Assembly (NCBI GenBank): GCA_040752695.1
Contig: JBFMGO010000046.1
Coordinates: 1-38,842, forward strand
Length of the DNA stretch: 38,842 nt
From: a bacterium
Lineage (GTDB): Bacteria; SZUA-182; DTGQ01
Direction of reading: 5' to 3'
In this document: piece after piece, positions 1 through 16,372 of the stretch
How the letters are laid out: every line of letters begins with the position of its first letter
Position numbering within the stretch: the stretch's first letter is position 1
Notes under the pieces: model-generated
The model's input: the letters and a program-made list of their open reading frames with translations, nothing else
Databases searched by the model: none
What the model was told of the DNA's origin: nothing
Translations under genes and position numbers: made by a program

Positions 1-1
1 A

Positions 2-1590
2 CTCGACAGTTAAAAGTTTTATCTCAAGCAGCCCGTTTAAGTTGCTGAAAGTCGCAAGGCTGCGATTGTCTGGAACGAATTAAAGTATAAATCGCATGGG
101 CATTGATTGTGTGTAAATTTCTCAGGATGGTTTGAGTCAGTACCCCTTTGACAATATACTCAGAAGGAACCTTGTTGCTAAAGGTTCTCAGCCAATGTTG
201 ATTATCTTTCCAGATTTGTTCTGGGAACTGGAGAGCCAGGATTTGAAGTATTCCTACCAGGATAGCGGATACATTCACAAACCCTTCAATAGCTCTCAAC
301 TTGTCTTCTACCGCCGCCACAGGAATTTTTTGAGCAGGAGAATGTGAGTCCTTATTCTTTTTGGGGCGTCTACTCTTTTTTTCTACCAGCTTAGACCAGA
401 AATGGTAAGCTAACCCGCCAATGAGGTTTTTCAATACCCAGAACATGCTCTCAATGGAAGCTCTTCGGCAATACAGCTCCAGAATTTGAACTGCTGATAG
501 AGCCAGATCCGAGCACATCAGAACAATAGGGCCTCTGGAAGTAATAGCCAGAACAAAACGGATCTTACCCATGATGGGTTTCCAAAAAAGGTCGAGGCAC
601 AATATCTTTACCACCTCAGTGTTGCCATAAACACAACAGGTTGTTTCTGTAAACTCACTGGCTCTGTCTGCAAAGAGGTTTTGCAGGGTAAGCTTTTCCC
701 CATATTTCTTCTTTTTCCCTCTCTTGCCAGGAGGAGCAGGCTCAGGATCCAGATACGCCACGGCATTTTTCTTGGCATGAGTGATAATGTGCACCCAGGG
801 AACTCTCGCCGCAACACTGTAAACCCCTGCTGCCAGCAAAAACACAGGGCCAACAGCAAAATAGCTGTCCAGATTCAGGTAGCAGGGACAATTCATATTC
901 TCAGCAATGCGGATGGCTTGGTAGACAATCCGGGTTGCCTTACTATAGCCATCTTTTTTGTTGACTTCATCTCTGTCCAATTCTCCCAAGAGGGGAATAG
1001 CAAAGCATTTTTGAACAGCACGTTCCATGACCAAGGCTATGAAGCACCACACATGGCCTCGATAGTAACTGGGCTTACTCGATGTCTCTGAATCCTGGTG
1101 GATTCAAACCAATCCAGGCATCTTACGTCCCTCTTTGGGCTGATTGGTATGGTCCCCAACCATCACTGATCTTCCCTGAACCTTCAGACAGAAGCTATCT
1201 TGAAAACAATAACTCTGCCAAAACCCCAGTAACCCCTCAAGTGTCCACCCAGTTGAGTGAAAAAAGTGTAACATCGTCCAATAGCACCCAGGGTCTAGCG
1301 AAAGCCAGCGTACTATACTGCTCACCCCGTAGTGATCTGCCCGCACTACCAGTCCTATCATGATAACTAAAAACCACTGATAGCTCGCTACTCGTGAAAA
1401 GCATGGCCGAAAATTCTTCAAAATGCCGAATAGTTTCTCATCCATAGGTGGTTTTCTCCGTAAACTTTTGCTAAGGGTTTATGAAAATCATCTATGGATA
1501 CTTTTCTTACTATTCCATGAAATTAGCTCACCTATCCTCTAAAATTTCCTTACCCTTCCTCCTCTTGGATGAGAACTTTTAACTGTCGAG
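2..1590 (-). mobile_element. Insertion sequence (DDE transposase, IS4/IS701-like), about 1.59 kb
   Basis: Perfect 17-bp terminal inverted repeat: ctcgacagttaaaagtt (2-18) and aacttttaactgtcgag (1574-1590), enclosing the transposase ORF. The target-site duplication cannot be judged because the left flank is only 1 nt. Confidence 0.88.
24..1445 (-). pseudogene. DDE transposase interrupted by a single in-frame TGA (1104-1106)
   Basis: ORFs 1104..1445 and 24..1052 are in the same frame, and reading through gives ...KMPGLV*IHQDSETSSKPSYYRGHVWCF. Motifs VMVGDHT, LDSYFA and YCRRASIESMF (Y-2-R-3-E) are typical of DDE transposases. Confidence 0.85.
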
Positions 1591-1660
1591 AGGAAAATGA
1601 AAATCTAGGAAAATTACTTACTATAGTGAAATAAGCGTTGTAGGGTTAATTGATTGTATC

Positions 1661-1773
1661 GTAAGTTCTCAATAAGTTCGGGTAAAATTGAGTTTTTAAA
1701 AATATGAATACCATAATTTCAACAGGTTACACTAACCGATATTGCTATTTACCTCAACTTTTTGAGAAGTTAC
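1661..1773. mobile_element. MITE-like non-autonomous element, 113 bp
   Basis: 26-bp imperfect TIR (1661-1686 gtaagttctcaataagttcgggtaaa versus 1748-1773, 22/26 match), flanked exactly by the 8-bp direct repeat attgtatc (1653-1660 and 1774-1781). Confidence 0.7.
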
Positions 1774-1826
1774 ATTGTATCGTGGTGTAATCGATTTACG
1801 AAGGTCGAAATTCCTGGAATAAAAAT

Positions 1827-1856
1827 TTGACATTCAGACAGCAGACTTTTTATAAT
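1827..1856 (+). promoter_or_regulatory. Sigma70-type promoter of the radical SAM/peptide unit
   Basis: Consensus TTGACA (1827-1832), 18-nt spacer, TATAAT (1851-1856), with an A-rich tract upstream. Confidence 0.7.
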
Positions 1857-1958
1857 TAATTATAAGTCAATTTTAATTAGTAATATGACGCAGCAAATTA
1901 TCTTGCCGATCCTGACAGGGTAATGCTATTGATACCTTCGTTAGGGGGGGACCTACGG

Positions 1959-3320
1959 ATGTATAGATACAAGAGCTCGCAATTCAATCTTTTTATTCCC
2001 ATCGACGACTCTGAAGAATGTCTCATATTTAACACTTTCACCGGTTCGGAAGTGGTAGTTGACCGGCATTTAAGAGCGCTTATTGAAATTGAAAAGAACC
2101 AGTCTTCCGGTGAGCCGCTCTCTCCTTTTGATGAATCAAACCTGGATCAGCTCAAAGAGCTGGGCATACTGGTTGATGAGCATGCTGATGAGGATCGGGA
2201 GTTGGAGTACTGGTTCCAGAAAATCAAGTTTGATACTTCGATGCTTGCCATTACCATCCTGCCTACGCTGGCCTGTAATCTGAAGTGTACCTATTGCCTT
2301 CAGGATGGCCTTCAGTCCGACACCTTCATGAGCTGGGAAACGTGCAGTCTGGTGGTTGCCTGGATCAAAAAGAAAATGGAGGACATCCGTCCAGCCACCC
2401 TGAGTATTCTTTATTACGGTGGAGAGCCCCTTCTGAACCTGCCAGCCATCACCTATCTCAGCCAGTCTCTTTACGAGGCTGCCAGGGCTCATGGAATCAG
2501 GCTGGATATACAGATTGTTACCAACGGCGTTTTACTCAAAAGGGAAGTGGTGGATGCTTTGCTTCCTCTGGGCTTGAGCGGAGTAAAGATTACCCTGGAT
2601 GGCGACGAAGATGCCCATAATCTCAAACGCCCCTTTAAGGACGGCCAGGGGAGCTTTCAGCAGATCTTTCAAAATCTGGTTCAGATCTATGGCAGGGTAC
2701 CTGTCAGGCTGGGTGGAAACTTTGATGAGCACAATAAGGGCTCAATTCCCGGTCTGCTTGATCGTCTTCTCGGAGCAGGAATAAGGGACAAGCTGGAACA
2801 GGTTCATTTTAAACCGATACTTACCAGCCCTGCCTGCCAGAAAAAAGGTGGAAGCTGCCAGGTTTGCACTTTCTCCGAGGCCAATCCAGGGGATATACTC
2901 TGGCTCAGGAGGGAGATAGAAAAAAGAGGCTTCAAGACCAACGACGGCATACACTTAGGGCCGTGCATGGTCATGAGGGAACATTCCTACACCATAGATC
3001 CCGTCGGTAAGATCTATAAATGCGGCGGCTTTGTTGGAATGGATGACTTTTCCGTCGGAAATCTTCATCATGACACTTTTCATTACCGGCTGACCGAATT
3101 CATGACCACCGACCTTTGGAGAAAGTGTCGTGGTTGTCCATTCATTCCTCTGTGCGCAGGAGGATGCAGGAGCAGTGCCTTCCTGAAAGGAAGTGATTTT
3201 TTCCAGCCAGTATGCGAAAAAAGGTATTTTAACCAGGTGGCCATGCCTCTGATTAAAGAGGAATATCTTCGCAGTAACAAAGGAGGTGAATTCGATGAGG
3301 ATTATCAAGAAGGGCAGTAA
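1959..3320 (+). CDS. Radical SAM/SPASM-domain peptide maturase (resembles geopeptide-type maturases)
   Basis: CNLKCTYC (CX3CX2C), YYGGEPLL, VTNG, ITLDG. C-terminal SPASM cysteines GPC...YKC...CRGCPFIPLCAGGC...C. N-terminal ~90 aa look like an RRE/PqqD-type extension. Start placed at ATG 1959 (G-rich SD at 1944-1950); the ORF track starts at 1923. Confidence 0.9.
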   Translation: MYRYKSSQFNLFIPIDDSEECLIFNTFTGSEVVVDRHLRALIEIEKNQSSGEPLSPFDESNLDQLKELGILVDEHADEDRELEYWFQKIKFDTSMLAITILPTLACNLKCTYCLQDGLQSDTFMSWETCSLVVAWIKKKMEDIRPATLSILYYGGEPLLNLPAITYLSQSLYEAARAHGIRLDIQIVTNGVLLKREVVDALLPLGLSGVKITLDGDEDAHNLKRPFKDGQGSFQQIFQNLVQIYGRVPVRLGGNFDEHNKGSIPGLLDRLLGAGIRDKLEQVHFKPILTSPACQKKGGSCQVCTFSEANPGDILWLRREIEKRGFKTNDGIHLGPCMVMREHSYTIDPVGKIYKCGGFVGMDDFSVGNLHHDTFHYRLTEFMTTDLWRKCRGCPFIPLCAGGCRSSAFLKGSDFFQPVCEKRYFNQVAMPLIKEEYLRSNKGGEFDEDYQEGQ

Positions 3321-3375
3321 GATTGTAGTGCCGAATCCGGATTGTCAATTCATTATTGATTTTAGATTTCATTGA
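3295..3375 (+). CDS. Putative RiPP precursor peptide, 26 aa: MRIIKKGSKIVVPNPDCQFIIDFRFH
   Basis: Translated by hand; not in the ORF track. Strong SD AAGGAGGTGA at 3280-3289, ATG 3295, TGA 3373-3375. Overlaps the rSAM 3' end and is followed by an intrinsic terminator. Confidence 0.8.
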   Translation: MRIIKKGSKIVVPNPDCQFIIDFRFH

Positions 3376-3433
3376 TTATTATGAAATAATCTGTTATATC
3401 TTCTATCAGCTATTTATTTCTTAATACAATACA

Positions 3434-3468
3434 CGGGCCGGATGAAAAACGTCCGGCCTGGTTTTTTT
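3434..3468 (+). terminator. Rho-independent terminator after the precursor peptide
   Basis: Stem cgggccggatg / cgtccggcctg (11 bp including G-U pairs), 5-nt loop, followed by gTTTTTTT. Confidence 0.8.
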
Positions 3469-3470
3469 AA

Positions 3471-3498
3471 TTGACACTTTCAGAAGATAAGATATAAA
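3471..3498 (+). promoter_or_regulatory. Putative sigma70 promoter for SBP1/SBP2
   Basis: TTGACA (3471-3476), 16-nt spacer, TATAAA (3493-3498), directly after the terminator. Confidence 0.5.
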
Positions 3499-3585
3499 TT
3501 AGGCTGTAAAGAATTTCGTACACATCTTTTCTGATAGGTACTTTAGAAGGCATTTAATTTCAAACAGGAATTTCCTCTCCCGAAT

Positions 3586-5184
3586 ATGCAGAGTAAAAGG
3601 TTGCCTGCTCTTTTTATCCTCTTCAGCCTTCTCATCGGCCAGGTTTCGTGTCACAAACAGGATGCGCCTGCCAAACCGTTTAGAGGCACTCTCACCATCG
3701 GCGAGTTCATCAGGCCGCAAACCTTAAATCCAGTTCTTGAGGTCACTGGCGTTTCGGCACATCTGGTGAATCTCATCTTCGACAGCCTGGTCAGGATCGG
3801 GGAAAAAGGTGAAATCCTGCCTCATTTGGCAGTTTCCTGGGAGATGAAAGGCGGCGGCAGGGAATGGGTCTTCTATCTGAGAAAGGGGGTAAGGTTCCAT
3901 GACGGGCGTCAATTGAGTGCCGATGATGTAAAATTTACCCTGGACCTGGTCAGAGATCCTGCCCTTGGGAGCGGCTATGCTCGTTCTCTCAGCCAGATTG
4001 CGAAAGTGGAGGTCAGGGATTCATACACAATCGGCATCTCTTTGACTGAGCCCTCGGTTTCCCTTCCCCATGAAATAAACATTGGCATCCTGCCAAGGCA
4101 CCTTCTCGAGGGAGAGAATATCCGGGCAAGCTCGTTTAACTATCATCCGGTAGGCACCGGTCCTTTTCAATTCGTCCGATGGTCCCGGGATGAGGTTGAA
4201 TTTGCGGCTAACCTTAATTATTTTCTGGGAAGACCATATCTCGATCACGTAGTGGTCAAATCATTTAAGAATCAGTATCTTGTCAGTGCAAACCTGATGA
4301 GGGGCGAAATCGATGCCTTTCCGTTTCTTGCTTCCAGCTCGTATGAAGTAATAAAAAAAATCCCCTCTTTCAGGGTCTATCCCACCTTAAGGCCTTTCTA
4401 TTATTTGATCGCCTTTAATCTGTCCAATCCTCTGTTTCAGGACAGGAGGGTTCGTCAGGCCCTTAATTACGCTATAGATAAGGAAAACATCGTAAAAAGG
4501 GCGTTGAAGGGGAGAGGAATTGCTGCATCGGGCACAATCTTTCCCTCTTCCTGGGCCTTTGATGACAGGATCGAGCCGTTCCCCTATGATCCCTGTAAGG
4601 CAATGGAGTTATTGAAAGAGGCCGGCTGGCAGGATTCTGACGGAGACCACGTCCTGGATAAGAACAATCAGCCGTTTACGTTTGATCTTTATTTAGTCGA
4701 GGGTCACGATGAGCTTGAAACTTCTTCTTTGATAGTTATGGAGCAGTTGGCAAATATCGGAGTAATGGCCAGTGTGAAGAAGGTGTCCCTGGAGGTTCTT
4801 ATCCGGGAGCATCTTTTCTTCAGGGAATTCGGGGCTGTCTTTATATATATATACGCCGGCAGTGACCCGGATAAAAGCTATAATTTTTGGCATTCCTCAA
4901 GTAATAAGGCTGGATTAAATTTCTTTTCTTATGCTAATCCCAGGGTTGATCATTTGCTCGACCAGGGCAGGCGCACGCTGGATCAGGAGAAGAGAAAAAG
5001 AATCTATGGTCAGCTTCAGGAGGAGATGAAAGAAGACCCTCCTGGGATATTTCTTTTCTGGAAGGAAAATCTCCTTTGCGTGCATAAGCGGTTCTGTGGG
5101 ATAACGGTATCACCGTTTCAAGGAGGACTCAACAGCATCCGGGAGTGGTATATATGTCCTGCTGACGAAATGAAGCATGATTGA
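3586..5184 (+). CDS. Family-5 (OppA/AppA-like) peptide-binding lipoprotein, copy 1
   Basis: Lipoprotein-type signal (LLIGQVSC), LRKGVRFHDG, PVGTGPF, FQDRRVRQALNYAID. Confidence 0.9.
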   Translation: MQSKRLPALFILFSLLIGQVSCHKQDAPAKPFRGTLTIGEFIRPQTLNPVLEVTGVSAHLVNLIFDSLVRIGEKGEILPHLAVSWEMKGGGREWVFYLRKGVRFHDGRQLSADDVKFTLDLVRDPALGSGYARSLSQIAKVEVRDSYTIGISLTEPSVSLPHEINIGILPRHLLEGENIRASSFNYHPVGTGPFQFVRWSRDEVEFAANLNYFLGRPYLDHVVVKSFKNQYLVSANLMRGEIDAFPFLASSSYEVIKKIPSFRVYPTLRPFYYLIAFNLSNPLFQDRRVRQALNYAIDKENIVKRALKGRGIAASGTIFPSSWAFDDRIEPFPYDPCKAMELLKEAGWQDSDGDHVLDKNNQPFTFDLYLVEGHDELETSSLIVMEQLANIGVMASVKKVSLEVLIREHLFFREFGAVFIYIYAGSDPDKSYNFWHSSSNKAGLNFFSYANPRVDHLLDQGRRTLDQEKRKRIYGQLQEEMKEDPPGIFLFWKENLLCVHKRFCGITVSPFQGGLNSIREWYICPADEMKHD

Positions 5185-5239
5185 AAAATTCCGGGCATCC
5201 ATCCGCTCCGAGACAGGATGAATACGACCTGCAAACGCC

Positions 5240-6844
5240 ATGAATAGCAAGAAGCTGATTGTACTGTTTATATGTGCAAATCTTCTCCATGGTCAGTTTT
5301 CATGCTCTAAGAAGCGGAACGATACGCCTGCCAAACCGTTTAGAGGCACTCTCACCATCGGCGAGTTCACCAGGCCGCAAACCTTAAATCCAGTTCTTGA
5401 GGTCACTGGCGTTTCGGCACATCTGGTGAACCTCATCTTCGACAGCCTGGTCAGGATCGGGGAAAAAGGTGAAATCCTGCCTCATTTGGCAGTTTCCTGG
5501 GAGATGAAAGGCGGCGGCAGGGAATGGGTCTTCTATCTGAGAAAGGGGGTAAGGTTCCATGACGGGCGTCAATTGAGTGCCGATGATGTAAAATTTACCC
5601 TGGACCTGGTCAGAGATCCTGCCCTTGGGAGCGGCTATGCTCGTTCTCTCAGCCAGATTGCGAAAGTGGAGGTCAGGGATTCATACACAATCGGCATCTC
5701 TTTGACTGAGCCCTCGGTTTCCCTTCCCCATGAAATAAACATTGGCATCCTGCCAAGGCACCTTCTCGAGGGAGAGAATATCCGGGCAAGCTCGTTTAAC
5801 TATCATCCGGTAGGCACCGGTCCTTTTCAATTCGTCCGATGGTCCCGGGATGAGGTTGAATTTGCGGCTAACCTTAATTATTTTCTGGGAAGACCATATC
5901 TCGATCACGTAGTGGTCAAATCATTTAAGAATCAGTATCTTGTCAGTGCAAACCTGATGAGGGGCGAAATCGATGCCTTTCCGTTTCTTGCTTCCAGCTC
6001 GTATGAAGTAATAAAAAAAATCCCCTCTTTCAGGGTCTATCCCACCTTAAGGCCTTTCTATTATTTGATCGCCTTTAATCTGTCCAATCCTCTGTTTCAG
6101 GACAGGAGGGTTCGTCAGGCCCTTAATTACGCTATAGATAAGGAAAGTATCATAAAAAGGGTATTGAAGGGGAGAGGAATTGCTGCATCGGGCACAATCT
6201 TTCCCTCTTCCTGGGCCTTTGATGACAGAGTCGAGCCGTTCCCCTATGATCCCTGTAAGGCAATGGAGTTATTGAAAGAGGCCGGCTGGCAGGATTCTGA
6301 CGGAGACCACGTTCTGGATAAGAACAATCAGCCGCTTGCATTCCAGATTTACCTCCCTGATGGTTACGATGAACTTGAATCATCTTCTTTCATGATTATG
6401 GAGCAGTTGGCAAGCGTCGGGGTAATGACCAGGGGGGAGAAGTTTCCGGTGGAGATTTTCAACCGGGAGCATCTGCTCACCAGGAAATTTGAGGCTGTTT
6501 TTATGTTCGCTAATGCTGGCGGCGACCCGGATAGCAGTTATCAATTCTGGCATTCCTCATCGGCCAGGGGGGGATTTAATTTCTTTTCTTATCATAATCC
6601 CGGGATTGACCAACTGCTCGATCAGGGTAGGAGCACACGGGATCAGAAGGAGAGAAAAAGAATCTACAGTCGGTATCAGGAGGAAATAAAAGAAGACCCT
6701 CCTGGAATATTTCTTTTCTGGAAAGAGAATCTCCTCTGCGTTCATAAGCGGTTCTGTGGAATACATGTCTCTGCGTTTTACGGGGTATTCAACAGCATCC
6801 GGGAATGGTATATATGCCCTGATGACGAAAGAAAGCATGACTGA
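5240..6844 (+). CDS. Family-5 peptide-binding lipoprotein, copy 2
   Basis: Same motifs as copy 1. About 820 bp nearly identical to copy 1 at offset +1660. Confidence 0.9.
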   Translation: MNSKKLIVLFICANLLHGQFSCSKKRNDTPAKPFRGTLTIGEFTRPQTLNPVLEVTGVSAHLVNLIFDSLVRIGEKGEILPHLAVSWEMKGGGREWVFYLRKGVRFHDGRQLSADDVKFTLDLVRDPALGSGYARSLSQIAKVEVRDSYTIGISLTEPSVSLPHEINIGILPRHLLEGENIRASSFNYHPVGTGPFQFVRWSRDEVEFAANLNYFLGRPYLDHVVVKSFKNQYLVSANLMRGEIDAFPFLASSSYEVIKKIPSFRVYPTLRPFYYLIAFNLSNPLFQDRRVRQALNYAIDKESIIKRVLKGRGIAASGTIFPSSWAFDDRVEPFPYDPCKAMELLKEAGWQDSDGDHVLDKNNQPLAFQIYLPDGYDELESSSFMIMEQLASVGVMTRGEKFPVEIFNREHLLTRKFEAVFMFANAGGDPDSSYQFWHSSSARGGFNFFSYHNPGIDQLLDQGRSTRDQKERKRIYSRYQEEIKEDPPGIFLFWKENLLCVHKRFCGIHVSAFYGVFNSIREWYICPDDERKHD

Positions 6845-6926
6845 AAACTCCCTGGCATTCATCCGCTCCTACGGAATGGGTATGACCTGCAAACGCCATA
6901 AGTCCAGCTTTTATAGTCATCTTATA

Positions 6927-6955
6927 TTGACATTTCATAACGTAAGGCATAAGAT
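6927..6955 (+). promoter_or_regulatory. Putative sigma70 promoter for SBP3
   Basis: TTGACA (6927-6932), 17-nt spacer, TAAGAT (6950-6955), in an AT-rich intergenic region. Confidence 0.55.
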
Positions 6956-7023
6956 AATATACACATAATTATATACGGCAGTTATATTCTTAAGGTATAT
7001 TATAAATAATCTCTCTCCTCTCC

Positions 7024-8643
7024 ATGGATCGTAAGAAGCTCATTGCACTGCTTATAATCGTAAACCTTCTCCTGGGTCAAGTCTCATGCTCTAAAAAGCG
7101 GAACGATGCGCCTGCCAAACCGTTTGGAGGCATCCTTACCATTGGCGATATTGCCAGTCCGGGGACCTTAAACCCTCTTCTGGAGGTTAGTGGGATCTCA
7201 GCTCAGCTTGTGAACATTATATTTGACACTTTGGTCAGGGTAGGGGATGAAGGCGAGATTCTGCCGGGCCTTGCGGTATCCTGGGAAATGAATGAGTGCG
7301 GCAGGGAATGGATCTTTCACCTCAGGGAAGGAGTAAGGTTCCATGACGGCCACCCGTTTACGGCTGACGATGTTGAATTTACTGTCAATCTGGCTAAAGA
7401 TCCTCATGGAGGGAGCAAATTCGTTCATATCTACGACCAGATTGAGAAAATAGAGGCCAGAGGCCCATACACGATCAGCATGCGTATTGCCAGGCCAGCG
7501 GTTTCTTTTATTCATGCGATGACCCAGTTGCGCATTTTACCCAGACATCTTTTGCAGGAAAAGGATATCCGCACGGTCTCGTTCAATTACCAGCCGGTAG
7601 GCACCGGCCCTTTTCGGCTCATACGATGGTCTTTGGACAGGGTTGAGTTCGAGGCCAACAGGGACTACTTTCTGGGGAGGCCATATCTTGACCGGGTGGT
7701 GGTAAAATTATTTGACAATCAGCGCCTTGTCTGGGCACATTTGATGAATGGCGAGGTTGATACCATGAAGCTTCCCGATCCTATCATGTATAAGATAATT
7801 AAAAAGATACCCGATTTCAGGGTCTACTCCAGCCTGAAGCCTTATTACTACATTATCGGTTTTAATCTGGCCAATCCTCTTTTTCATGACAGAAAGGTTC
7901 GCCTGGCTCTGAATTATGCCATAGACAGGGAAGATATTATTAGACGGATATTAAAATGGCGGGGGATTGCCACAGCAGGTACAATCTCCCCCTGCTCCTG
8001 GGCCTTTAACGCCCAAATGAAGCCATTTGTCTTCAATACTCACAAGGCAGTGGAACTACTGAAAGAGGCGGGCTGGCAAGACACTGATGGCGATCTCATA
8101 CTGGATAAAAACAACCAGCGGTTTGAATTTCAGATTTACCTCCCTGATGGCTACGATGAACTTGAGGCAGCCTCTTTAATGATTGTGGAGCAATTATCAA
8201 ACATCGGAATAGTTACCAGAGTCAGGAAGTTACCCATGAAGGCGATCAATCAGGAATATCTTCTGACCAGGAAGTTTGATGCCGTCTTTATCTATATTTC
8301 TGCCGGCACTGATCCGGATTTTAATTACCAGTTCTGGCACTCCTCACAGATCGATAACGGGTTTAACTTCTTTTCTTACCGTAATCACAGGATTGACCAC
8401 CTGCTCGACCAGGGGAAGTGCACATCTTCTCAGGAGAAAAGGAAAGAAATTTATTACCAGTATCAGGAGGAAATGAGGGAAGATCCCCCCGCTCTATTTC
8501 TTTTCTGGCGGGATCATCTTTTGTGTGTACATAAGCGGTTTCATGGAGTGGATTGCGGATCTGTCTATAGAGGGCTGTATAGTATCCGGGACTGGTATAT
8601 AGCCGCAGACGAAGAAATGGGAGAGAGGGCTGAAAAGAAATAA
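7024..8643 (+). CDS. Family-5 peptide-binding lipoprotein, copy 3 (more divergent)
   Basis: LLGQVSC lipobox-like signal, LREGVRFHDG, PVGTGPF, DRKVRLALNYAID. Confidence 0.9.
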   Translation: MDRKKLIALLIIVNLLLGQVSCSKKRNDAPAKPFGGILTIGDIASPGTLNPLLEVSGISAQLVNIIFDTLVRVGDEGEILPGLAVSWEMNECGREWIFHLREGVRFHDGHPFTADDVEFTVNLAKDPHGGSKFVHIYDQIEKIEARGPYTISMRIARPAVSFIHAMTQLRILPRHLLQEKDIRTVSFNYQPVGTGPFRLIRWSLDRVEFEANRDYFLGRPYLDRVVVKLFDNQRLVWAHLMNGEVDTMKLPDPIMYKIIKKIPDFRVYSSLKPYYYIIGFNLANPLFHDRKVRLALNYAIDREDIIRRILKWRGIATAGTISPCSWAFNAQMKPFVFNTHKAVELLKEAGWQDTDGDLILDKNNQRFEFQIYLPDGYDELEAASLMIVEQLSNIGIVTRVRKLPMKAINQEYLLTRKFDAVFIYISAGTDPDFNYQFWHSSQIDNGFNFFSYRNHRIDHLLDQGKCTSSQEKRKEIYYQYQEEMREDPPALFLFWRDHLLCVHKRFHGVDCGSVYRGLYSIRDWYIAADEEMGERAEKK

Positions 8644-9020
8644 AGTTTTTCTTCCCTTGCTCAAAGCGAGTTGCTCTGTATACTTAATGAAGTATATGTA
8701 TCCATTAATTTGGTAATATTCAATGTGCTCCGGTATCGAGTACCTGATCAATTATAGCGGCTTGCAGTCGTATGCACTACACATAATACGCTATCATTGG
8801 CGGTTTAGCGGCAACTATTGGAGTCTCGTCAAGCGAAAGCCACTATAGGATATTGAGGAGCAACTGGAGCTTTCGCTCAGAATGACACGGCTGGGTAAAT
8901 TGAGCCCAGGGGTCATTATCTTCCCCCTCAATCGGAGCTTGACTGGTCGCCAGCCGAAAAGCGGGGATAGTGCAGCTTTTTTCGCTGCACTGCAAAGAGA
9001 AGGGAGGAAATAAGCAATCT

Positions 9021-11036
9021 ATGGGAAAAAGATCCTTTATGTGCCTGATCATTGGACTTTTGTGTCTCGGTCCGGTTTCTTTGCCAGGGGCCGAGGAGGA
9101 GGTGCATTATCTCGATCCTGTTATTGTCTCCGTGGACAGAATTCCCCAAACCCTGACTCAATCGACCAGTTCAGTTACCGTAATCAGCGGGGAAGAGCTG
9201 GCTGATGCCTCCCCTGCGCGAATCGATGAAATACTGAGAGGGACTCTGGGCGCATCCATAAATACCTCCGGCACTCCTGGAGAGACTATCTCGGTTCGTT
9301 TGCGAGGGAGCGGCAATAACCAAACCATGGTCTTAATTGACGGTATGAAGGTTAATTCTCCCTGGAATGGCGCCTATGGAGAATGGGGCAATACGGAGAT
9401 GACCGACATTGGCCGGATCGAGATTATTCGCGGGCCCCAAAGTGAACTGTATGGCTCGGAAGCCATAGGAGGGGTAGTGCATCTTTTTACCGGGAAAGGA
9501 GAGGACTCCCGCGGCCTTGAGATCTCCTTAGGAGGGGGAAGTTTTAAAACGAAGAAGGAATCTCTGGAGTATGCCGGCGGAGGGGAAAATGTCAATTTTC
9601 TCCTTTCCGCATATCACACAAAATCACGGGGACAGTATGATAACAAAGACGCTTACCGCAATGCCGGCCTTGCAGCAGGATTCGGCTGGCAGGCCAGTCC
9701 CCTGTTTTCTCTCAAAGCGGTCTGCCGGTACAGAGAAAACAGAAAAGAACTGGCGGTAAATCCGGATGAATTTTTCTTTCTGGATTCAAACGCATCCGTT
9801 TATCTGGGACCTGATAATCCTGATAAACACCAGCAGACCATGTTCTGGGACAATGACGGCGTCCGGCGCGATCGTTTCTTCCTGCAAACCCTGTCCGCAG
9901 AAGGAGACCCCAGCCGCTGGTGGCATTACCGGCTGAATGCAGGCTACTTGCAGGACCATTACCGAGCCGAAAAAGGATTATATTACGGCACTACCACTAC
10001 CTTTATTGCCGACATATTGAGTGACCGGCTGTCAGTAGGGACACAGCACGACTTTACCCTGTCCGACGAGCTTCCCAATACCTTCAGCCTGGGAGTGGAA
10101 TACGAACAGGAGACTGTAGACGCAGAGCAGGATTTCACCGGTGATCCCAACGACATCATCCCTCCCTTGCGGTCAGTGTTTTTTGACACTGTCGATAAGA
10201 ACCGGCACAACCTGTCCCTGTTTTTCCAGAACCGGCTTGAGGTGCACCCTTTGACCATAACCGCCGGACTCAGATGGGACGATAACTCAGCCTACGGAGA
10301 GGTCTTTAGCCCCCGCATCAGTGAGTCCTTCTGTATCGACCCGACCAAAACCCGCCTTAAAGCCAGTTGGGCACAAGGGTACAGGGCTCCTAACTTTCAG
10401 GAACTCTATTTTCCTTTCCTGGGAAATCCCGATCTCAAACCGGAAAAATGCACCGGTTTTGAAGCGGGTTTCGAGCAGCCCATTCTGGACAGGCTCTCTA
10501 TCGGATGCACCTATTTCCACACCAAATTCGAAGATCTTATCTCCAAGCCAGGCGGTGCCCGCAATATCAATGCCGCCGTTGTCGAGGGGATCGAAGGGGA
10601 ACTCGCCTGGGATCCTCTTCCCTCGTTAGGGTTTCGGATTTCCTATACCTGGCTCGATTCGCAGGACAAGAAGACGAATAAAGAACTTACTGACCGGCCG
10701 AATCATACGGTTAAGATAGCGGCTGACTACAGCTATGCGGGATTTTCCGTGCATCCACTCGTCAACATAGTCAGCAGTGAATATGCCGATTACGCCTCAC
10801 TGGACCTTCAGGGGAATCCGATTAAAGAGCGCAATCCTGGCTACACGCGAGTGGATGTGACCTTTCAATACGAAATTGTCCATCAGTACGCATCGAAAAG
10901 CCATTGCCTGTCAAAAGGCCGGCTGCAGTGGTATGGCCGTATCAATAACCTGTTTGATGAGGACTACTGCGAGGTGCAGGGTTTTCCTACCCCTGGAATA
11001 AATTTTATGACCGGCATTACGGCTGCATTTTACTAA
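9021..11036 (+). CDS. TonB-dependent outer-membrane receptor (plug + beta-barrel, BtuB-like fold)
   Basis: Signal peptide, TonB-box-like DPVIVS, plug motif RIEIIRGPQSELYGSEAIGGVV, GNPDLKPE, INNLFDEDY, C-terminal aromatic residue. Start at ATG 9021 after AGGGAGGA; the ORF track starts at 8970. Confidence 0.92.
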   Translation: MGKRSFMCLIIGLLCLGPVSLPGAEEEVHYLDPVIVSVDRIPQTLTQSTSSVTVISGEELADASPARIDEILRGTLGASINTSGTPGETISVRLRGSGNNQTMVLIDGMKVNSPWNGAYGEWGNTEMTDIGRIEIIRGPQSELYGSEAIGGVVHLFTGKGEDSRGLEISLGGGSFKTKKESLEYAGGGENVNFLLSAYHTKSRGQYDNKDAYRNAGLAAGFGWQASPLFSLKAVCRYRENRKELAVNPDEFFFLDSNASVYLGPDNPDKHQQTMFWDNDGVRRDRFFLQTLSAEGDPSRWWHYRLNAGYLQDHYRAEKGLYYGTTTTFIADILSDRLSVGTQHDFTLSDELPNTFSLGVEYEQETVDAEQDFTGDPNDIIPPLRSVFFDTVDKNRHNLSLFFQNRLEVHPLTITAGLRWDDNSAYGEVFSPRISESFCIDPTKTRLKASWAQGYRAPNFQELYFPFLGNPDLKPEKCTGFEAGFEQPILDRLSIGCTYFHTKFEDLISKPGGARNINAAVVEGIEGELAWDPLPSLGFRISYTWLDSQDKKTNKELTDRPNHTVKIAADYSYAGFSVHPLVNIVSSEYADYASLDLQGNPIKERNPGYTRVDVTFQYEIVHQYASKSHCLSKGRLQWYGRINNLFDEDYCEVQGFPTPGINFMTGITAAFY

Positions 11037-11160
11037 GTGGTTTTATCGTAAAGTACCGAGAGCAGCAAGCAATCCGTCAATCGCAGCGGCGGCTCCTGGT
11101 GGCCACTTCGAACGGCGCATTTTGTTAGCGATAGGACTACCTCAGTACACCGCACATTAA

Positions 11161-11227
11161 GAGGCTATCCCAAAACCCCATTTCAGGTGAATGATTACAC
11201 CTGTTGCCGGAGGTTTTGGGATAGCAC
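11161..11227. repeat. Short palindromic / MITE-like element
   Basis: gctatcccaaaacc (11164-11177) pairs with ggttttgggatagc (11212-11225), with an inner caggtg/cacctg pair, flanked by taa on both sides. Confidence 0.5.
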
Positions 11228-11240
11228 TAAGTGTACAGTA

Positions 11241-11284
11241 ACCTCCTCTATTCCCCCTTTGATAAAGGGGCTTGAGGGGATTTT
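11241..11284. repeat. REP-like hairpin (cccctttgataaagggg)
   Basis: GC-clamped palindrome at 11254-11270. A similar hairpin, tcccccttaagaggggga, lies at 19982-19999. Confidence 0.4.
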
Positions 11285-11389
11285 CAACATGGAATAAATC
11301 TTGCTCTTTCTTTCCCTATAAATGTTGGGAGGGGATTGCAGAGTAATTCCCGTAAGTCTACCTTTAACCGTCTATCATAATGCTTAAGG

Positions 11390-13165
11390 ATGAAATCTCC
11401 ATCGATTAATCATGTATCTACGAAAATATCCATTAAACTCATATGCCTGCTGGTTCTCTCTGCTCTGGCTCCTCTTAGCGTCTATGGGATCTTCTCTATT
11501 TATACCTCAAGAAAAGCATATTATCAATCCGCCTCGGAAGGGAACAAGCATGTAGCCATTGGAACTGCTGAGCAGATTGAGCTTTACGTAAAAAATACCC
11601 ATAATATCCTGCAGGGGCTGGCCAGCAATATTAATCGAATTTATCTGAACAAGTGGCAAAAAGAGGTTATCATCAGGAATTTCGTTATCAACTTTGACGA
11701 ATTCAAGAAGATTTCCATCATTAACTCCAATGGTCGAGAGGTGGCCAGCAGCAGTCTGGATGAAAACCCATTTGACTGGTCACATGAAGAGTCTTTCAAA
11801 AAGGCCATGCAGGGAGAGGTCTATTTCTCTGAAGTCTTTATCTCTGACAATCTGGTGCCTTCCATGATTATTGCGCTTCCCATTAAGGGTTCCCATATCG
11901 TTGACGGTGTTATCCTTGGGGAGGTTGACCTTTCGGCTATGTGGAACCTGGTGGACGGAATTAAAATGGGAGAAAATGGCGTTGTTTTTGTGGTTTCCCG
12001 CACAGGGCTTCTTATCGCCCACGGAAAGAGCGAGCGGAAACCGGATGTCTTCAAACAGAGGAACATGAGTGACTTTGAGGTCGTCAAATCCGTCCTGCAG
12101 GGTAAAACCGCCGCGCGAACCTATCAGAACGAAGATGGTCTTCAGGTATTGGGAATCGGTTATCCCATGAAAATGCTAGGATGGGGGGTGATTGCCGAGC
12201 AGCCTACCAGAGAAGCGTACAAGGTAGCTATCAGCATGACCCGCTCCCTGTCCGCACTCACCGTTCTTTTTCTGGTGATTATGATTACCATCGGTATTAT
12301 TGGAGGAAAGCAGGTAACCAGGCCTATTTATGAGTTGGTCGAGGCAACCAGGGCCATTGCCGCAGGGGACCTCACCAGGAAGGTGAGAGTCTCTTCCAGG
12401 GATGAATTCGAAGGGCTGGCCAATTCGTTTAACCTGATGACCGAAAGACTGGTCGAGCTCAAGGAGGAGATCCGTCTGCGCGAGCGATTATCGATCTTTG
12501 CCAGAATAGCCGCCGGTCTGGTTCACGACCTGAAGCATCCGATCAAGAACATCGAGAACAGCAGCAGTCTTATCCTGCGCTTCTACTACGATCAGGAATA
12601 CCGTGAGGTATTCCGCAAAACGGTTCAAAGAGAGTTCCTCAACATTAATCAGTTCCTGAACGACCTGCATAATCTTACTCATCCGACTCCCATAGCGCTC
12701 ATAGAGTTGCCTGTCGAGGCTATTACCAAGGAAATCATCAATCTTTACACAGACGAAGCCCGCCAGAAGGGGATTGAATTAAAGTTTTTCTCTCAGGCCC
12801 AGGACGTACGGATACTGGCTGACAGGTTCCTGTTTGAGAGAATCATCAAGAACCTGGTCACGAACGCCATAGAAGCCATGCCTGGCGGCGGCACCGTGCG
12901 TATCACCCTCACCAGGGATGACAGGTATGAAAGTGGAAGAGGAGCGGTCAGGATATCGGTGGAAGATACCGGCCAGGGAATACCCAAAGAGCGGATTGAT
13001 ACTATTTTCACCGACTATATCACTACCAGGAAAAGAGGGCTGGGACTGGGACTGGCTATAACCAAAAAAAATGTCTCAGAACTCGGCGGGAGTATAACAC
13101 TGCACAGTGAAGAAGGGAAAGGCTCTACCTTTATCCTAACCTTTCCTCTTCGTCATAATCAGTAA
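11390..13165 (+). CDS. Membrane sensor histidine kinase (Cache-HAMP-HisKA-HATPase)
   Basis: Two TM segments flank a dCache-like periplasmic domain. HAMP (RPIYELVEATRAIAAGDL...DEFEGLANSFN), H-box VHDLKHP, N-box NLVTNA, DTGQG, GLGLGL. Confidence 0.92.
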   Translation: MKSPSINHVSTKISIKLICLLVLSALAPLSVYGIFSIYTSRKAYYQSASEGNKHVAIGTAEQIELYVKNTHNILQGLASNINRIYLNKWQKEVIIRNFVINFDEFKKISIINSNGREVASSSLDENPFDWSHEESFKKAMQGEVYFSEVFISDNLVPSMIIALPIKGSHIVDGVILGEVDLSAMWNLVDGIKMGENGVVFVVSRTGLLIAHGKSERKPDVFKQRNMSDFEVVKSVLQGKTAARTYQNEDGLQVLGIGYPMKMLGWGVIAEQPTREAYKVAISMTRSLSALTVLFLVIMITIGIIGGKQVTRPIYELVEATRAIAAGDLTRKVRVSSRDEFEGLANSFNLMTERLVELKEEIRLRERLSIFARIAAGLVHDLKHPIKNIENSSSLILRFYYDQEYREVFRKTVQREFLNINQFLNDLHNLTHPTPIALIELPVEAITKEIINLYTDEARQKGIELKFFSQAQDVRILADRFLFERIIKNLVTNAIEAMPGGGTVRITLTRDDRYESGRGAVRISVEDTGQGIPKERIDTIFTDYITTRKRGLGLGLAITKKNVSELGGSITLHSEEGKGSTFILTFPLRHNQ

Positions 13166-13272
13166 CACCGGGTGCTTCCGTGCCGGGTGCCGGGTTTTTG
13201 CGTGCTGGACTTAACCGGTGACTGATCACTGATCATTGATCACCGGGCACTGGTCATTGACCACCGGTCACC
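13166..13272. repeat. Short tandem heptamer repeats between convergent genes
   Basis: ccgggtg-type units, then gactgat/cactgat/cattgat/caccggg/cactggt units. Confidence 0.55.
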
Positions 13273-16200
13273 AGTTGAAGCCCCTTGGGCAGGGACTCGC
13301 CAAAGACAAGGCTTTGCTCCCTGGATTGATAATGACTTACCTCTATGACACTCTGAATGGCCTGGTCCAGCGTAATCACCTCATGTTTTCGACTGTCCTC
13401 CCTGAGTGCCTCTTCCCTGGCCTGGGTAAAAAATGCTATGAGCTGGTCCCTGACCGAGTCCCTTATGTCCCGTGCCCGATCGGAGGTCTTTCGGGCCAGT
13501 TGGGTCAGGGCAAAAGTCTTTTCATCTCTGGGAAGCGTTTGTATTTTTAACAGGCGTACGACCCATTCCTCCGCAGTTTCAGCAGGAACAACCGAATGGA
13601 CGCTGCCGTAAAGGGGCTGGCGTGCCCCGATTCTGGCTAAAGCCCACAGATCGGCCGGCAGGGATTTGCCCAGCGACAGGCGATCCAGCAGGATACTGCC
13701 CATGGTTTCTTTGGTTTTTATGTCCAGCCGCTCAAGGCTCGCGCCCAGTCTCCACATTTCGGCCAATTCATGTAAAGATGGCTTCGGTCCTGCGGGAGCT
13801 TTTTTCTGGGGGATAAGATACGGCATAATTTTCCGGAAGATTTCCATCTGGTGATTCTGGTTGAGCCCACCGGCCACTCTCCGGCAGAGAATCCAGGTCT
13901 GATTTTTGACTTCCCGGTCTTTCATGTCCTTTATCCCCTGAGGAAGTACTTTCCACAGGTTTTTTATCCGCCACTCGTCCAGAGGATAACCGAATCCCGG
14001 ACGCAGGCAAAAGCCTAAAAGATTCAACCATCGTGCTTCCTGGGTTGCGGAGCGCCCCTTTTGCCCTGCGAATTCAAGGAGCATTTCGCTCATCTTACGT
14101 AAGGTGAAAATGGGCCAGGACTGCCGGGGGGCATCGAGCGCTTCTTCCATTTTTTTAAAGAGATTATCCGGCGTCACTTTTCCCGCTTCCGGCTCTCTTG
14201 CACCGTCACCAAAAACCGATGACAAAAGCGGCCTCACCTTCTCTACATCCAGGGCTTCTCCTTCCCCGGCGGCAGGCTCTAAATCTTCCACAAGCGAGGA
14301 GACAGCCTTTTGTTTTTTAACCTCCCGGATCCCAAACTGGAGTCTCCACTGCCGGTCTCCCTCCCTGGAGACGCACCATAATTCCAGGGTTCCGATCTCA
14401 GTCAGCCTGGCCCGCAGGTGCACCGGCACTTTTTTATGCTTGGCCCGGCCCCGGCGTAAAATGGTCTGAATCGGCGGAAGGAGCCGAAAGGACTCATCCA
14501 TCGTCTCCGATCCTTTTGCCGACTCCTGCGACTCTTCCTGCTTTGCGCTTTCTGTCGGTTCTTCAGGCTCCTGTGGCTCTGGCCGCATTGAGACATCCGA
14601 TACGGTAACCGGCAGAATGTCTCCGGCCTGGTCCAAAAGGCGGGTGCTGGAGGTGTAGAGAGGAAAACTCACCGGCTCGCCAATCAAAAGAACAAATTCT
14701 TTATCTTTGATCTCGACCTCCTGGCCTTCCTCCATTTTTCGGGGAACCAGGCACAGGGCCCTGGGGGTATGTTGTGCTCCCACATCTTTTTGCTCTTCGG
14801 TGCCGACACCTATGTAGTAGGACCGGCCAATACCTCCGCTGATGCGAATACCTTTCCCCTGCCGGACCTGCCCGTAATAGGCTGCGCCGTAAGCAACAGC
14901 CAGATCCCCCATTTCGGGGAAGAGAACCGTCGGGCTCCATCTGTTTTCAGCCTCACCGGACCCCTGTCCATGGTTTGCCGGGAACCAGCCCTCCATGATC
15001 CGGACAACCCTGTCCTGCAAAAACCTGGGCTTGAGTGCACCGCCGTTGAAGAGAATGGCATCGGGTCTGGCCAGATCCGCGTCAGGCTGGCCTGTCTTCT
15101 CCCTCAGTTCCCGGATACTGGCCTGATGCTTGCGCAAAAAGGAAGCAAGGTGCCGGGACACGGCGGTATCCTGTACATAGGGAAGCCCCCACTCCTGCAG
15201 GCCCATCCGGGATGAGCGGACCGGCTCTTCTTCCAGCCTGCTTATGGGAAAAAAGCCATTTTCGACAATCTCCTTCACTAGTTCCCTGCTCAAATCAAAT
15301 TTCAGGGTGCTCCCGATCAACCGGCTGCTTCGGTCCTGAACGACAATCGGCCAGGAGGTATGCTCGTAAGGTTCGCTTAAAAGCTCCTCTTTGGCCCTTC
15401 GGCAGCCGTGACACAACATTGACCATTGGCCGGAATCGAGTTTTCCCGCCTGGCCCGTCAGCTTGACCTCGATATGACGGGCCAGGGCCATATCGATGTT
15501 ATCCCCGCCCAGAATCAGGTGATCACCTACAGCCACGCGGGTGAACACAGGCTTGCCTCCCTCTTCCTGCACGGTAATCAGGCTGAAATCGGTAGTGCCG
15601 CCCCCCATATCGCAGATAACCACGATCTGGCCGTTGTGCAGGTACTGATGCCAGGAGTCGCGGTTGGTGGCGATCCAGGCATAAAAGGCAGCCTGAGGCT
15701 CTTCCAGGAGGGTTACCTTTTCAAGACCCGCTTTCAGCGCGGCATCCAGAGTCAATTCCCTTGCCACCTCATCGAAAGATGCGGGAACGGTCAGGATAAC
15801 GTCCTGATTTTGCAATTGGTTTTCCGGCTCCCCTTGAGCCATCTCGTGGTTCCAGGCATCGCGGATGTGCTGTAAATAGCGGGAAGAAGCTTCCACGGGA
15901 GAGAGTTTTTCCAGATCCTTTCCCCCGCTCCAGGGTAAAATGGCGGCTTTGCGATCAACTCCGGCATGGCAGAGCCAGGATTTAGCCGAAGAAACCAGAC
16001 GGGACGGCACACTGGCCCCCAGTTTCTTGGCAAATTCACCCACGACAAAGGTAATTTCCCTGTCCCAGGGCAGGCGGATGTTTTCCTGCATCAGCTCATG
16101 CGGTCCGGCCAGATACAGGTAAGAGGGAAGCATCGGCAGGGAAGAAAGATTCCCCTCGGAAACCAGTTGCAGGGTTCGGAAGATTTTAATCTCTCCTGCG

Positions 16201-16334: not shown

Positions 16335-16372
16335 GATTTTTCAGCTAGTTATCATTATCGTCATCAGTATGG

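Follow-up and report, generated by a model that had tools for sequence, protein, structure and literature searches.

A radical SAM/SPASM maturase and short peptide associated with a TonB-dependent receptor, orphan binding proteins and a sensor kinase: a candidate peptide-signalling module

The seven genes of the locus

The DNA analyzed here, 38,842 nucleotides long and referred to as the window, is the entire contig C46 of a bacterial genome (G000; 6.05 Mb, 239 contigs, 96.6% complete). Seven genes, all on the + strand, lie between positions 1827 and 13165, and encode a radical S-adenosylmethionine (rSAM)/SPASM peptide maturase, a 26-residue precursor of a ribosomally synthesized and post-translationally modified peptide (RiPP), three family-5 solute-binding proteins (SBP1, SBP2 and SBP3), a TonB-dependent receptor (TBDR) and a sensor histidine kinase. 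Calls of open reading frames (ORFs) and of Pfam and NCBIfam domains find all of them at the coordinates given by the original prediction, made from the letters of the sequence, and bear out its remark that the cluster lacks an ATP-binding cassette (ABC) permease or ATPase, a peptidase, an exporter and a response regulator, none of which occurs among the long ORFs of 1-16334. The prediction read the locus as a circuit in which the modified peptide is a signal, taken up by the receptor, bound by SBP paralogs of supposedly differing specificity and relayed to the kinase, putatively for quorum sensing or kin recognition and not for nutrient uptake. The rSAM-peptide pair and the set made of TBDR, SBP, kinase and sigma54-dependent regulator very probably form one functional system.

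The maturase gene (1959..3320, +; an alternative ATG lies at 1923) encodes 453 amino acids with a Radical_SAM domain (PF04055, 5e-14). The cysteines of the CxxxCxxC motif (C106, C110 and C113) do not vary among 23 homologues, in which the cysteines of the C-terminal SPASM domain (residues 348-427; TIGR04085, 51.1 bits against a cut-off of 27) are conserved as well. The best NCBIfam match is TIGR04280, the geopeptide radical SAM maturase, with 292.9 bits, below the 400-bit cut-off; other maturases of Cys-containing peptides follow (CefB, TIGR04463, Clo7bot and PapB), the pyrroloquinoline quinone (PQQ) and mycofactocin families being among the weaker matches. A short precursor gene is conserved alongside the rSAM/SPASM enzyme, as expected of a RiPP maturase.

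The precursor gene (3295..3375, +) shares its first 26 nt with the 3' end of the rSAM gene and encodes MRIIKKGSKIVVPNPDCQFIIDFRFH, with a single cysteine, Cys17. A Shine-Dalgarno sequence, AAGGAGGTGA, at 3280-3289, ends eight bases before the ATG. Homologous peptides of 21-26 residues follow homologous maturases in two genomes of the same genus (G003, MKIIKKGSKIVVPRPDCQVVIDWR; G002, MKIIKKGSKIIVPRPDCQWVLDHR; 79% identity by tblastn) and in eight more distant loci, which carry strong Shine-Dalgarno sites too. The tiny ORF was proposed as a gene and, on this evidence, is a genuine one. In the distant loci the peptide lies downstream of the rSAM gene, and reads MKLQVVKKGTRKDDKKTLYCFWFVTA in L075, MKLQVVKKGSRDKKVLWCWWMIYK in L082, MKIKIIKKGVKKENIKMNWCEWSYW in L076, MKIKIVKKGEKTTKTKMTGCAAYYF in L081 and MKIQKGKKVSNPKPVRCSPVVY in L002; the L077 peptide is like that of L076, with the tail ...CEWHYS. 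L003, from a metagenome-assembled genome of Myxococcota, has three tandem copies (11387-11710; ...KGQKVTNPNPVRCPGTLF), each with its own Shine-Dalgarno sequence, the cores being identical and the leaders differing at one residue. A near-constant leader, MK(I/L)x(I/V)(I/V)KKG, is followed by a tail in which one cysteine is found 5-10 residues from the C-terminus; only the L001 peptide (MKVVKKGTRKSSCIIFCKSKR) has two. The residues after Cys-Gln vary among the three genomes of the genus (F/V/W, I/V, I/L, F/W/H). The window peptide has no NCBIfam match. Against the geopeptide precursor model TIGR04229 (cut-off 30 bits) it scores nothing even at E<=10, nor does any other peptide of the family match, while a positive control, the peptide of locus L018, reaches 40.5 bits.

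Precursors so short, with aromatic residues near the C-terminus, would also suit a peptide-derived cofactor. The rSAM/SPASM enzyme would then start the conversion of the aromatic tail into a redox cofactor, as PqqE does with PqqA and MftC with MftA, and TBDR and SBP would serve its salvage. SPASM enzymes take part in making PQQ and mycofactocin, both families are among the weaker matches of the maturase, and a PQQ TonB transporter (9c4o) is among the PDB matches of the receptor (2.6e-16). A cofactor is nonetheless very improbable: no further tailoring enzymes are conserved, the core varies freely between close relatives, unlike that of cofactor precursors, and a kinase with a sigma54 regulator is not known to be a feature of the PQQ and mycofactocin pathways.

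SBP1 (3586..5184, +; PF00496, 1e-77) has a signal peptide and a cysteine at position 22. SBP2 (5240..6844, +; PF00496) is a recent paralog of SBP1, with a diverged signal peptide and C-terminal third, and SBP3 (7024..8643, +; PF00496) is 60% identical to both. SBP_bac_5 E-values range from 1e-77 to 4e-79, and the assignment to family 5 stands for all three. Their description as lipoproteins is less certain, the residues before Cys22 (G-Q-V/F-S) departing from the canonical lipobox rule. SBP1 and SBP2 are 86% identical as proteins. Positions 101-1100 of the nucleotide alignment are 93-100% identical (mostly 100%), the first 100 nt 65% and the last 500 nt 69-90%; about 50 nt after the two stop codons are also alike. 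The pattern is that of a local duplication homogenized over about 1 kb, the long tract of identity reflecting either gene conversion or a partial duplication of very recent date.

The TBDR gene (8970..11036, +; likely ATG at 9021) encodes a Plug domain and a barrel of the 22-strand class (PF07715, PF00593), and has no N-terminal signalling extension. It is one of five Plug-domain receptor genes in G000. BtuB is the best PDB match (5e-32) and TonB-B12 (TIGR01779) the best NCBIfam match, with 226.6 bits against a cut-off of 599.7, which places the protein outside the BtuB equivalog. An Rfam scan of 1-14000 returned no cobalamin or other riboswitch, but only two insignificant miRNA models at E<=1.

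The kinase gene (11390..13165, +) encodes a dCache_1 sensor domain (residues 43-269) between two transmembrane segments, a HAMP domain (307-355), a DHp domain with an invariant histidine, H379, and a HATPase domain. The kinase core is closest to ZraS, the kinase of a sigma54 system. A search of 5.8 billion clusters with residues 1-300 gave 29 relatives at E<=0.001, of which 27, query included, are at least 41% identical. Database matches of rSAM, kinase and SBP tie together in 18 pairs by equal lengths of their longest contigs, a proxy for co-location and not a proof of it. The sensor domain is a very narrow family, and by this proxy is found almost only with the module. Ahead of the kinase gene, at 11290, a weak sigma54-like box has no counterpart in G003 or G002, and was treated as a chance match.

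The seven genes probably form three transcription units rather than one, namely rSAM-peptide, SBP1-SBP2 and SBP3-TBDR, the last possibly continuing into the kinase gene, because a terminator follows the peptide gene and promoter-like sites are found at 3471 and 6927. The terminator (3434..3470, +) is made of an 11-bp stem with 8 GC pairs (hairpin at 3434-3460) and a T-run, and closes the rSAM-peptide unit; G003 and G002 likewise have a hairpin and T-run behind the peptide gene. A sigma70-type promoter-like site, TTGACA-18-TATAAT, matching 12 of 12 consensus positions, precedes the rSAM gene (1827..1856, +). Of the other two, TTGACA-18-TAAATT before SBP1 (3471..3500, +) is a consensus match only, and TTGACA-17-TAAGAT before SBP3-TBDR-kinase (6927..6955, +) has an equivalent in G003, TTGACA-17-TATAAT, before SBP-TBDR-kinase. 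A weak terminator-like hairpin (7-bp stem, 3 GC pairs) follows the kinase gene (13171..13201, +).

A gene set conserved around related maturases

Gene neighbourhoods of 152 rSAM homologues were fetched, and the 62 with at least 5 kb on both flanks were used for counting, partners being detected by tblastn with family representatives. Where the maturase is at least 30% identical to that of the window (n=22), a TBDR is encoded in 17 loci, an SBP in 17 (5 SBP5, that is SBP_bac_5, and 12 PF04392), a kinase in 16 and a sigma54 response regulator in 11. TBDR, SBP and kinase occur together in 14 of the 22, a count made partly with partner queries drawn from these very loci. At 28.5-30% identity (n=10) the figures drop to 1 for TBDR, 1 for SBP, 3 for kinase and 2 for the regulator, with all three partners in 1 locus. 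Below 28.5% (n=30; other RiPP classes, mostly from Bacteroidota and Bacillota) they are 0, 1, 3 and 2, and all three partners are found in none. The synteny that the signalling hypothesis called for is thus conserved (14/22 versus 0/30), and the gene association is, on these counts, a conserved, clade-specific module and not an accident of the window.

In L075, L082, L002 and L003, whose maturases are 33-49% identical to that of the window, genes for an NtrC-type sigma54 regulator, TBDR, rSAM, peptide(s), one SBP_bac_5 protein and a dCache-HAMP kinase lie on one strand. L076 features rSAM, peptide, methyltransferase, SBP5 and kinase, and the short contig of L081 rSAM, peptide, SBP5 and the start of a kinase gene. 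The SBP gene is coupled to the kinase gene, as in LuxPQ-type systems, in four loci, the ends of the two genes overlapping or abutting (L016, 12352/12342; L005, 11782/11779; L025, 8229/8234; L082, 13207/13240), which suggests that binding protein and kinase work together. In the window the TBDR gene sits between SBP3 and the kinase gene.

Additional genes vary from locus to locus. L075 has an HD_5 (HD-GYP-type) protein (11564-12160), and L082 a receiver-HTH-HD_5 protein (15697-16815); these HD-GYP-type genes hint at a signalling output. The L076 methyltransferase, S-adenosylmethionine-dependent, is encoded between peptide and SBP (11701-12618), and L002 has a major facilitator superfamily transporter on the opposite strand (13123-14409).

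All 7 relatives of the SBP5 type that were examined have a GG-N10-GC box with TTGC, typical of -24/-12 sigma54 promoters, 50-75 nt ahead of the rSAM start. The boxes of L082 (TGGCACAGCCATTGCT) and L081 (TGGCACAGGCTTTGCT) match 11 of 11 consensus positions, that of L075 (TGGCACAGGGATTGCC) 10 of 11, and those of L076, L077, L002 and L003 are weaker. Response regulators, missing from the cluster of the window as the original prediction had it, belong to the cluster in relatives, a sigma54 regulator being encoded in 4 of 5 annotated loci. Since the sigma54 activator is encoded in the same cluster as the sigma54 box, the rSAM-peptide unit is very probably its regulated target; regulator and promoter suggest the wiring expected of an autoinduction loop.

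A second, more distant type of locus, which we call geopeptide-type (L016, L005, L025 and L018), comprises TBDR, peptide, rSAM, a PF04392 'ABC_sub_bind' protein, a HAMP kinase and a sigma54 regulator. The gene order holds in L005 and L025; L018 has the same genes, some of them inverted, and in L016, where the order is the same, no precursor ORF was found. In L025 the kinase is of the hybrid type, with a receiver domain of its own, and a separate sigma54 regulator is absent from the stretch scanned. The peptide of geopeptide-type loci lies upstream of the rSAM gene and mostly has a Cys-Cys core; the L018 peptide, from Geotalea toluenoxydans, is MENETVELEVLDEGQSNEEENNTCCMSGLTRIF. In a quick maximum-likelihood tree of 79 rSAM sequences, loci of PF04392 type and of SBP5 type fall on opposite sides of one branch (SH-aLRT, the approximate likelihood-ratio test, 100). 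The window rSAM groups with those of G002 and G003 (support 100), then with L075, L082, L076 and L077. Among 20 genomes of the class examined, G000 included, 7 have an rSAM match at E<=1e-60. The G002 and G003 orthologues are 69-71% identical to the window rSAM, whereas the maturases of other members of the family and order group with the PF04392 clade, at least one of them (L166) having a Cys-Cys precursor upstream. Judged by these layouts, function-level organization is common to the two types, and the family of the binding protein differs.

The original prediction had pointed to the geopeptide models, and the outcome is mixed. TIGR04280 is the best family for the rSAM, and the window shares with the NCBIfam geopeptide pair the leader style (I/V)(I/V)xKKG and the logic of a module made of TBDR, peptide, rSAM, orphan SBP, kinase and sigma54 regulator. 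The rSAM, in contrast, stays below the cut-off, the peptide has no TIGR04229 match, and the kinase sensor is dCache_1. One cysteine replaces Cys-Cys, the peptide gene overlaps the rSAM gene downstream instead of lying upstream, and SBP_bac_5 takes the place of PF04392. TIGR04280 is a hypothetical equivalog, and the geopeptide pair a computational definition; the full-text literature outside subscription journals and supplements yielded no study of geopeptide or TIGR04280, and no description of this system. By these comparisons the window holds a variant of geopeptide-like systems which falls below both membership thresholds, and differs also in the regulation found in its genus.

The receptor chain could sense a foreign ligand, either an oligopeptide of prey or competitors or the peptide of another strain, the RiPP being an output, such as an antibiotic, or having another role. 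A sigma54 promoter shows control by a sigma54 activator, and not that the peptide is the input; AppA-like SBPs could bind ordinary oligopeptides; the window has three SBPs for a single peptide gene, and the receptor half is a separate locus in the genus (see below). Yet the SBP family switches with the peptide class on one rSAM branch, as if the SBP reads the peptide, although shared descent could also explain this. Genes for antibiotic immunity or export are not present, and the kinase sensor family is found, by the contig-length proxy, almost only with this module. A foreign ligand seems quite unlikely.

Proposed circuit and arrangement in the genus

The rSAM/SPASM enzyme would modify the 26-residue precursor, most likely by a thioether from Cys17 to a residue of the C-terminal tail, as family resemblance suggests. 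The product would leave the cell and, too large for porins, would re-enter the periplasm through the TBDR of the cluster. There one or more of the transporter-less family-5 SBPs would capture it, and the loaded SBP would activate the dCache-HAMP kinase, which in turn would phosphorylate the NtrC-type sigma54 regulator. In relatives, a regulator encoded in the cluster and a sigma54 promoter before rSAM-peptide would close a positive feedback (autoinduction); in this genus the wiring is altered, with sigma70-type promoters on both units and the regulator orthologue elsewhere, beside a soluble PAS kinase. That the cell makes a modified peptide, re-imports it through the TBDR, binds it by an orphan SBP and reports it to the kinase, with sigma54 feedback in most lineages, is to our judgement an evenly balanced proposition.

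Partial parallels are known. LuxP-LuxQ, TorT-TorS and AioX-AioS-AioR are sensor kinases dependent on binding proteins, and AioXSR uses a sigma54 regulator. They share with the present system a periplasmic binding protein encoded by the kinase gene, and its presumed docking on the periplasmic domain; the SBP belongs here to family 5 (or PF04392), and the proposed ligand is a ribosomal peptide in need of a TBDR. A predicted complex of SBP3 (residues 24-539) and the kinase sensor (44-284) scored 0.01 and 0.04 against a mark of 0.32, in a run made without controls, and speaks neither for binding nor against it. In Gram-positive bacteria, NisK/NisR and SpaK/SpaR sense modified peptides, nisin and subtilin, at the cell surface, and as two-component systems activate the operon of the peptide itself. 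The proposed circuit resembles them in the sensing of a modified peptide by a two-component system with autoinduction; it differs because an outer membrane lies between, TBDR and SBP are added, and the regulator is sigma54-dependent.

Computation establishes that the genes are present, that the peptide is real and belongs to a family, and that the association is conserved and specific to a clade; it further establishes the sigma54 boxes of relatives, the coupling of SBP and kinase genes, and an AppA-like fold without nickel residues. The conserved module, the sigma54 wiring of relatives and the non-nickel, AppA-like SBPs speak for the peptide-signal circuit of the original prediction; a single tight operon is improbable in this organism.

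A number of observations weigh against the circuit. Related loci are not independent in the counts given above. Exceptions exist among close relatives (L001, L031, L032 and L040): in L001 (9995-11419), on a contig labelled 'archaeon', the rSAM is 45% identical to that of the window, and no TBDR, SBP or kinase gene is found within 10 kb, GNAT acetyltransferases following instead. A Myxococcota subclade of six loci has neither TBDR nor SBP. The conserved genes of the module do not include one for an exporter, a leader peptidase or immunity. Receptor-specific fast evolution was not detected, within-genus identities being 58-62% for SBPs and 52-54% for TBDRs, against 50-65% for the neighbouring envelope proteins PilN, PilO, PilP and an Invasin_D3 protein. 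G003 carries the set in two places, with rSAM, peptide and SBP5 by pilMNOPQ on contig C69 (locus A), and SBP5, TBDR and kinase by a DUF3731, DnaK-related gene on C55 (locus B). G002 is split likewise, and its TBDR-kinase locus has no SBP. GG-N10-GC boxes do not precede the rSAM gene in G000, G003 or G002, where the promoters are sigma70-like. In G003 and G002 (L178, L179) the regulator orthologue lies directly downstream of a soluble PAS kinase gene. The last two points bear also on structure and uptake: NikZ, a nickel binder, ranks first for the SBP3 model in Foldseek, and G000 has a lone permease on C55 and two other unlinked SBP5 genes, on C16 and C119.

These differences of the genus call for closer description. 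With a strong terminator, no sigma54 box and sigma70-like promoters, the feedback loop of relatives is not evident in G000, and the combination of a regulator gene in the cluster with a -24/-12 promoter is found neither in the window nor in G003 and G002. The regulator orthologue of G000 (C99:394-1818) is the best match of all four cluster regulators (50-60% identity versus 41-44% for the next paralogs), with a receiver domain that shares 61% identity with those of L075 and L082 (33-44% for paralogs). In G003 the orthologue, 76% identical, is on a third contig, C31. Since the regulator adjoins a PAS kinase in G003 and G002, it is uncertain which regulator the dCache kinase addresses in this genus; the orthologue may answer to the PAS kinase instead of, or besides, the dCache kinase. 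In G000 the regulator and PAS-kinase orthologues (C99:394-1818 and C88:126-1358) are at the edges of separate contigs, and assembly overlaps gave no join of C99 or C88 to the window. Separation of the regulator from the locus by an insertion sequence (IS) was considered and rejected, the regulator being unlinked in all three genomes.

The DUF3731 gene of the window (13254-16334, - strand) is the conserved right neighbour of the kinase gene in locus B of G003 and G002, and the pil genes of locus A lie inverted in the window at 29012-33663. The locus-B neighbour and the displaced locus-A pil genes indicate that the contiguous array of seven genes is a rearrangement particular to this genome. G000 is the only one of the three in which both halves are joined and the binding protein is present in three copies. 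SBP3 is slightly closer to the locus-B SBP of G003 (62%) than to that of locus A (58%). All parts, namely rSAM, peptide, one or more SBPs, TBDR, kinase and regulator orthologue, are kept in 3 of 3 genomes; in the split genomes SBP5 stays directly behind the peptide, and TBDR stays with the kinase. In G002 an M28 peptidase gene (L177, 12379-13416) lies directly upstream of the TBDR gene, where G003 and the window have SBP5.

Taken by itself, the window could host an orphan RiPP pair moved beside ordinary oligopeptide SBPs and a separate TBDR-kinase pair, the neighbours being independent of each other. The terminator and separate promoters agree with this, as do the fusion in 1 of 3 genomes only, the IS copies and short repeats which flank the locus, and the general lack of linkage of SBP5 genes and Opp permeases in the genome. 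The same families, however, are arrayed on one strand in distant lineages too, and this rSAM clade is the only one around which they are (14/22 versus 0/30), and the associations kept in the split genomes, with co-retention of the parts in 3 of 3, argue for a bond between them. Independence of the neighbours is therefore held to be improbable.

The IS copy (1-1590), upstream of the locus, shares 90.7% identity with C18:317-1904. Two ORFs on the - strand (24-1052 and 1104-1445) make up its transposase, a 113-residue DDE_5 N-terminal fragment and one of 342 residues. The terminal ~127 nt recur on at least eight contigs besides this one; the copies in C191, C86, C94, C25, C29 and C157 are at a contig end, those in C123 and C18 internal, and this recurrence, often at contig ends, marks the element as multi-copy and assembly-breaking. 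Short repeats at 1591-1650 and 1660-1774, between the IS and the rSAM promoter, have copies 98-100% identical on C63, C170 and C159 and on C17 and C61, and may be miniature mobile elements. An origin of the perfect sigma70 promoter at 1827 from the IS insertion was considered and rejected: the G003 orthologue is preceded by a similar site, TTGACG-17-TATAAT, with no IS, and the promoter is thus native to the genus.

Downstream, a DnaK-related set occupies 13254-19883 on the - strand (a 1026-residue HSP70/DUF3731 protein, a 648-residue HSP70-like protein and DUF2760), with a class I tRNA synthetase gene of the W/Y type in between. The N-terminal part only of CheR (184 residues) is encoded at 20261-20815, just upstream of a region (21034-23411) in which a dCache_1-HAMP ORF (382 residues) is followed after 9 nt by a GAF-HisKA-HATPase ORF (406 residues), a pair which resembles one sensor kinase split in two. 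The - strand of 26933-33663 carries pilMNOPQ and a gene for an Invasin_D3-domain protein, which in G003 and G002 directly follow rSAM-peptide-SBP.

Ligand of the binding proteins and meaning of the system

The best PDB sequence match of all three SBPs is Bacillus subtilis AppA (1xoc, a nonapeptide binder; 2e-71 to 7e-79, aligned to the C-terminus), and NikZ (4oet) is next. Foldseek, run with an AlphaFold2 model of SBP3 (pLDDT, the predicted local distance difference test, 91.9), returned NikZ 4oet and then AppA 1xoc with nearly equal scores. NikZ-type nickel binders are marked by a double-His 'HH-prong', GHHG, near the C-terminus (bioRxiv 10.1101/2022.10.03.510666). This prong occurs in 0 of 63 family members, SBP1-3 included, and no HH pair is found anywhere in SBP1-3. 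AppA, the SBP of an oligopeptide ABC importer, matches over its whole length and has the same cluster C fold; the window SBPs are ~31% identical to it, have no adjacent permease or ATPase, and are encoded in relatives by a gene coupled to the kinase gene. All NCBIfam equivalog scores are far below cut-offs (e.g. Opp4A, 210-218 against 650). In terms of an Opp, Dpp or Nik importer, the family-5 binding protein is there (PF00496, three times), and the adjacent permease and ATPase are not. G000 holds six SBP5 genes, the three of the window and those on C16, C97 and C119, and two OppB-type permease genes, one beside an SBP on C97 and one alone on C55. Because Opp-type parts are scattered in this genome, the missing permease is weak evidence in this organism, and the argument for a sensory role rests on relatives. 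Hence the possibility, raised with the original prediction, that SBPs and TBDR are of ordinary nickel, cobalamin or Opp type loses ground in that nickel prong and cobalamin riboswitch are absent, and keeps some in that Opp permeases exist elsewhere in the genome.

A secreted metallophore or scavenger peptide might instead be recovered by TBDR and SBP in the manner of methanobactin, a permease encoded elsewhere importing it and the kinase tuning expression. In that system Cu-methanobactin enters through MbnT and is bound by MbnE, a relative of OppA/AppA, while its passage across the inner membrane is not understood (PMC7558416). The methanobactin operon has the same layout, in which a RiPP precursor and maturase are joined by a TonB importer of their own and a family-5 SBP, and a permease is lacking (PMC7558416). 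The nickel binder at the top of the Foldseek matches of SBP3 and the lone OppB-type permease on C55 agree with such a role. So would positive feedback, which siderophore systems typically show.

Other features of the window point away from it. The core has one cysteine, expected to be used in the thioether, and no His- or Cys-rich motif; the NikZ prong is absent from all 63 SBPs, and MbnE is not among the PDB matches listed for them (60 of 82). The cluster Pfam matches include no MbnB/MbnC-type domain, and the maturase matches Radical_SAM only. The window thus differs from the methanobactin operon by an rSAM/SPASM enzyme in place of MbnBC and by the lack of a metal-binding motif. Methanobactin regulation relies on sigma/anti-sigma pairs, whereas a kinase and a sigma54 regulator belong to the present module. 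Overlapping or abutting SBP and kinase genes in relatives, and HD-GYP-type genes in two clusters, speak for signalling, and no metal-regulator gene or riboswitch was seen. Re-uptake of a metallophore is considered unlikely; were the peptide a carrier, it would represent a second RiPP re-uptake system besides methanobactin.

Returning to the peptide-signal circuit, its extension to diderms at large is more tentative, and we place it somewhat short of even: Nitrospirota, Thermodesulfobacteriota, Myxococcota and the class of this genome may use rSAM-modified peptides as self-made signals, imported by TonB-dependent receptors, relayed from SBP to kinase and governed by a sigma54 autoinduction loop. 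Peptide pheromones are textbook matter in Gram-positives, and small diffusible molecules are the rule for bacteria with an outer membrane. If true, the circuit would show how the latter could use ribosomal modified peptides as signals, and would assign a sensory, not nutritional, role to a TBDR and to 'orphan' ABC binding proteins, a frequent and so far puzzling feature of genomes. Variability of the residues behind the cysteine, the three SBPs of the window and the three precursors of L003 would then mark strain-specific 'pherotypes' or eavesdropping. The system is experimentally tractable, with a 26-residue precursor, a single maturase, and cultivable Geobacter-type carriers of the Cys-Cys sister form, such as Geotalea toluenoxydans (L018).

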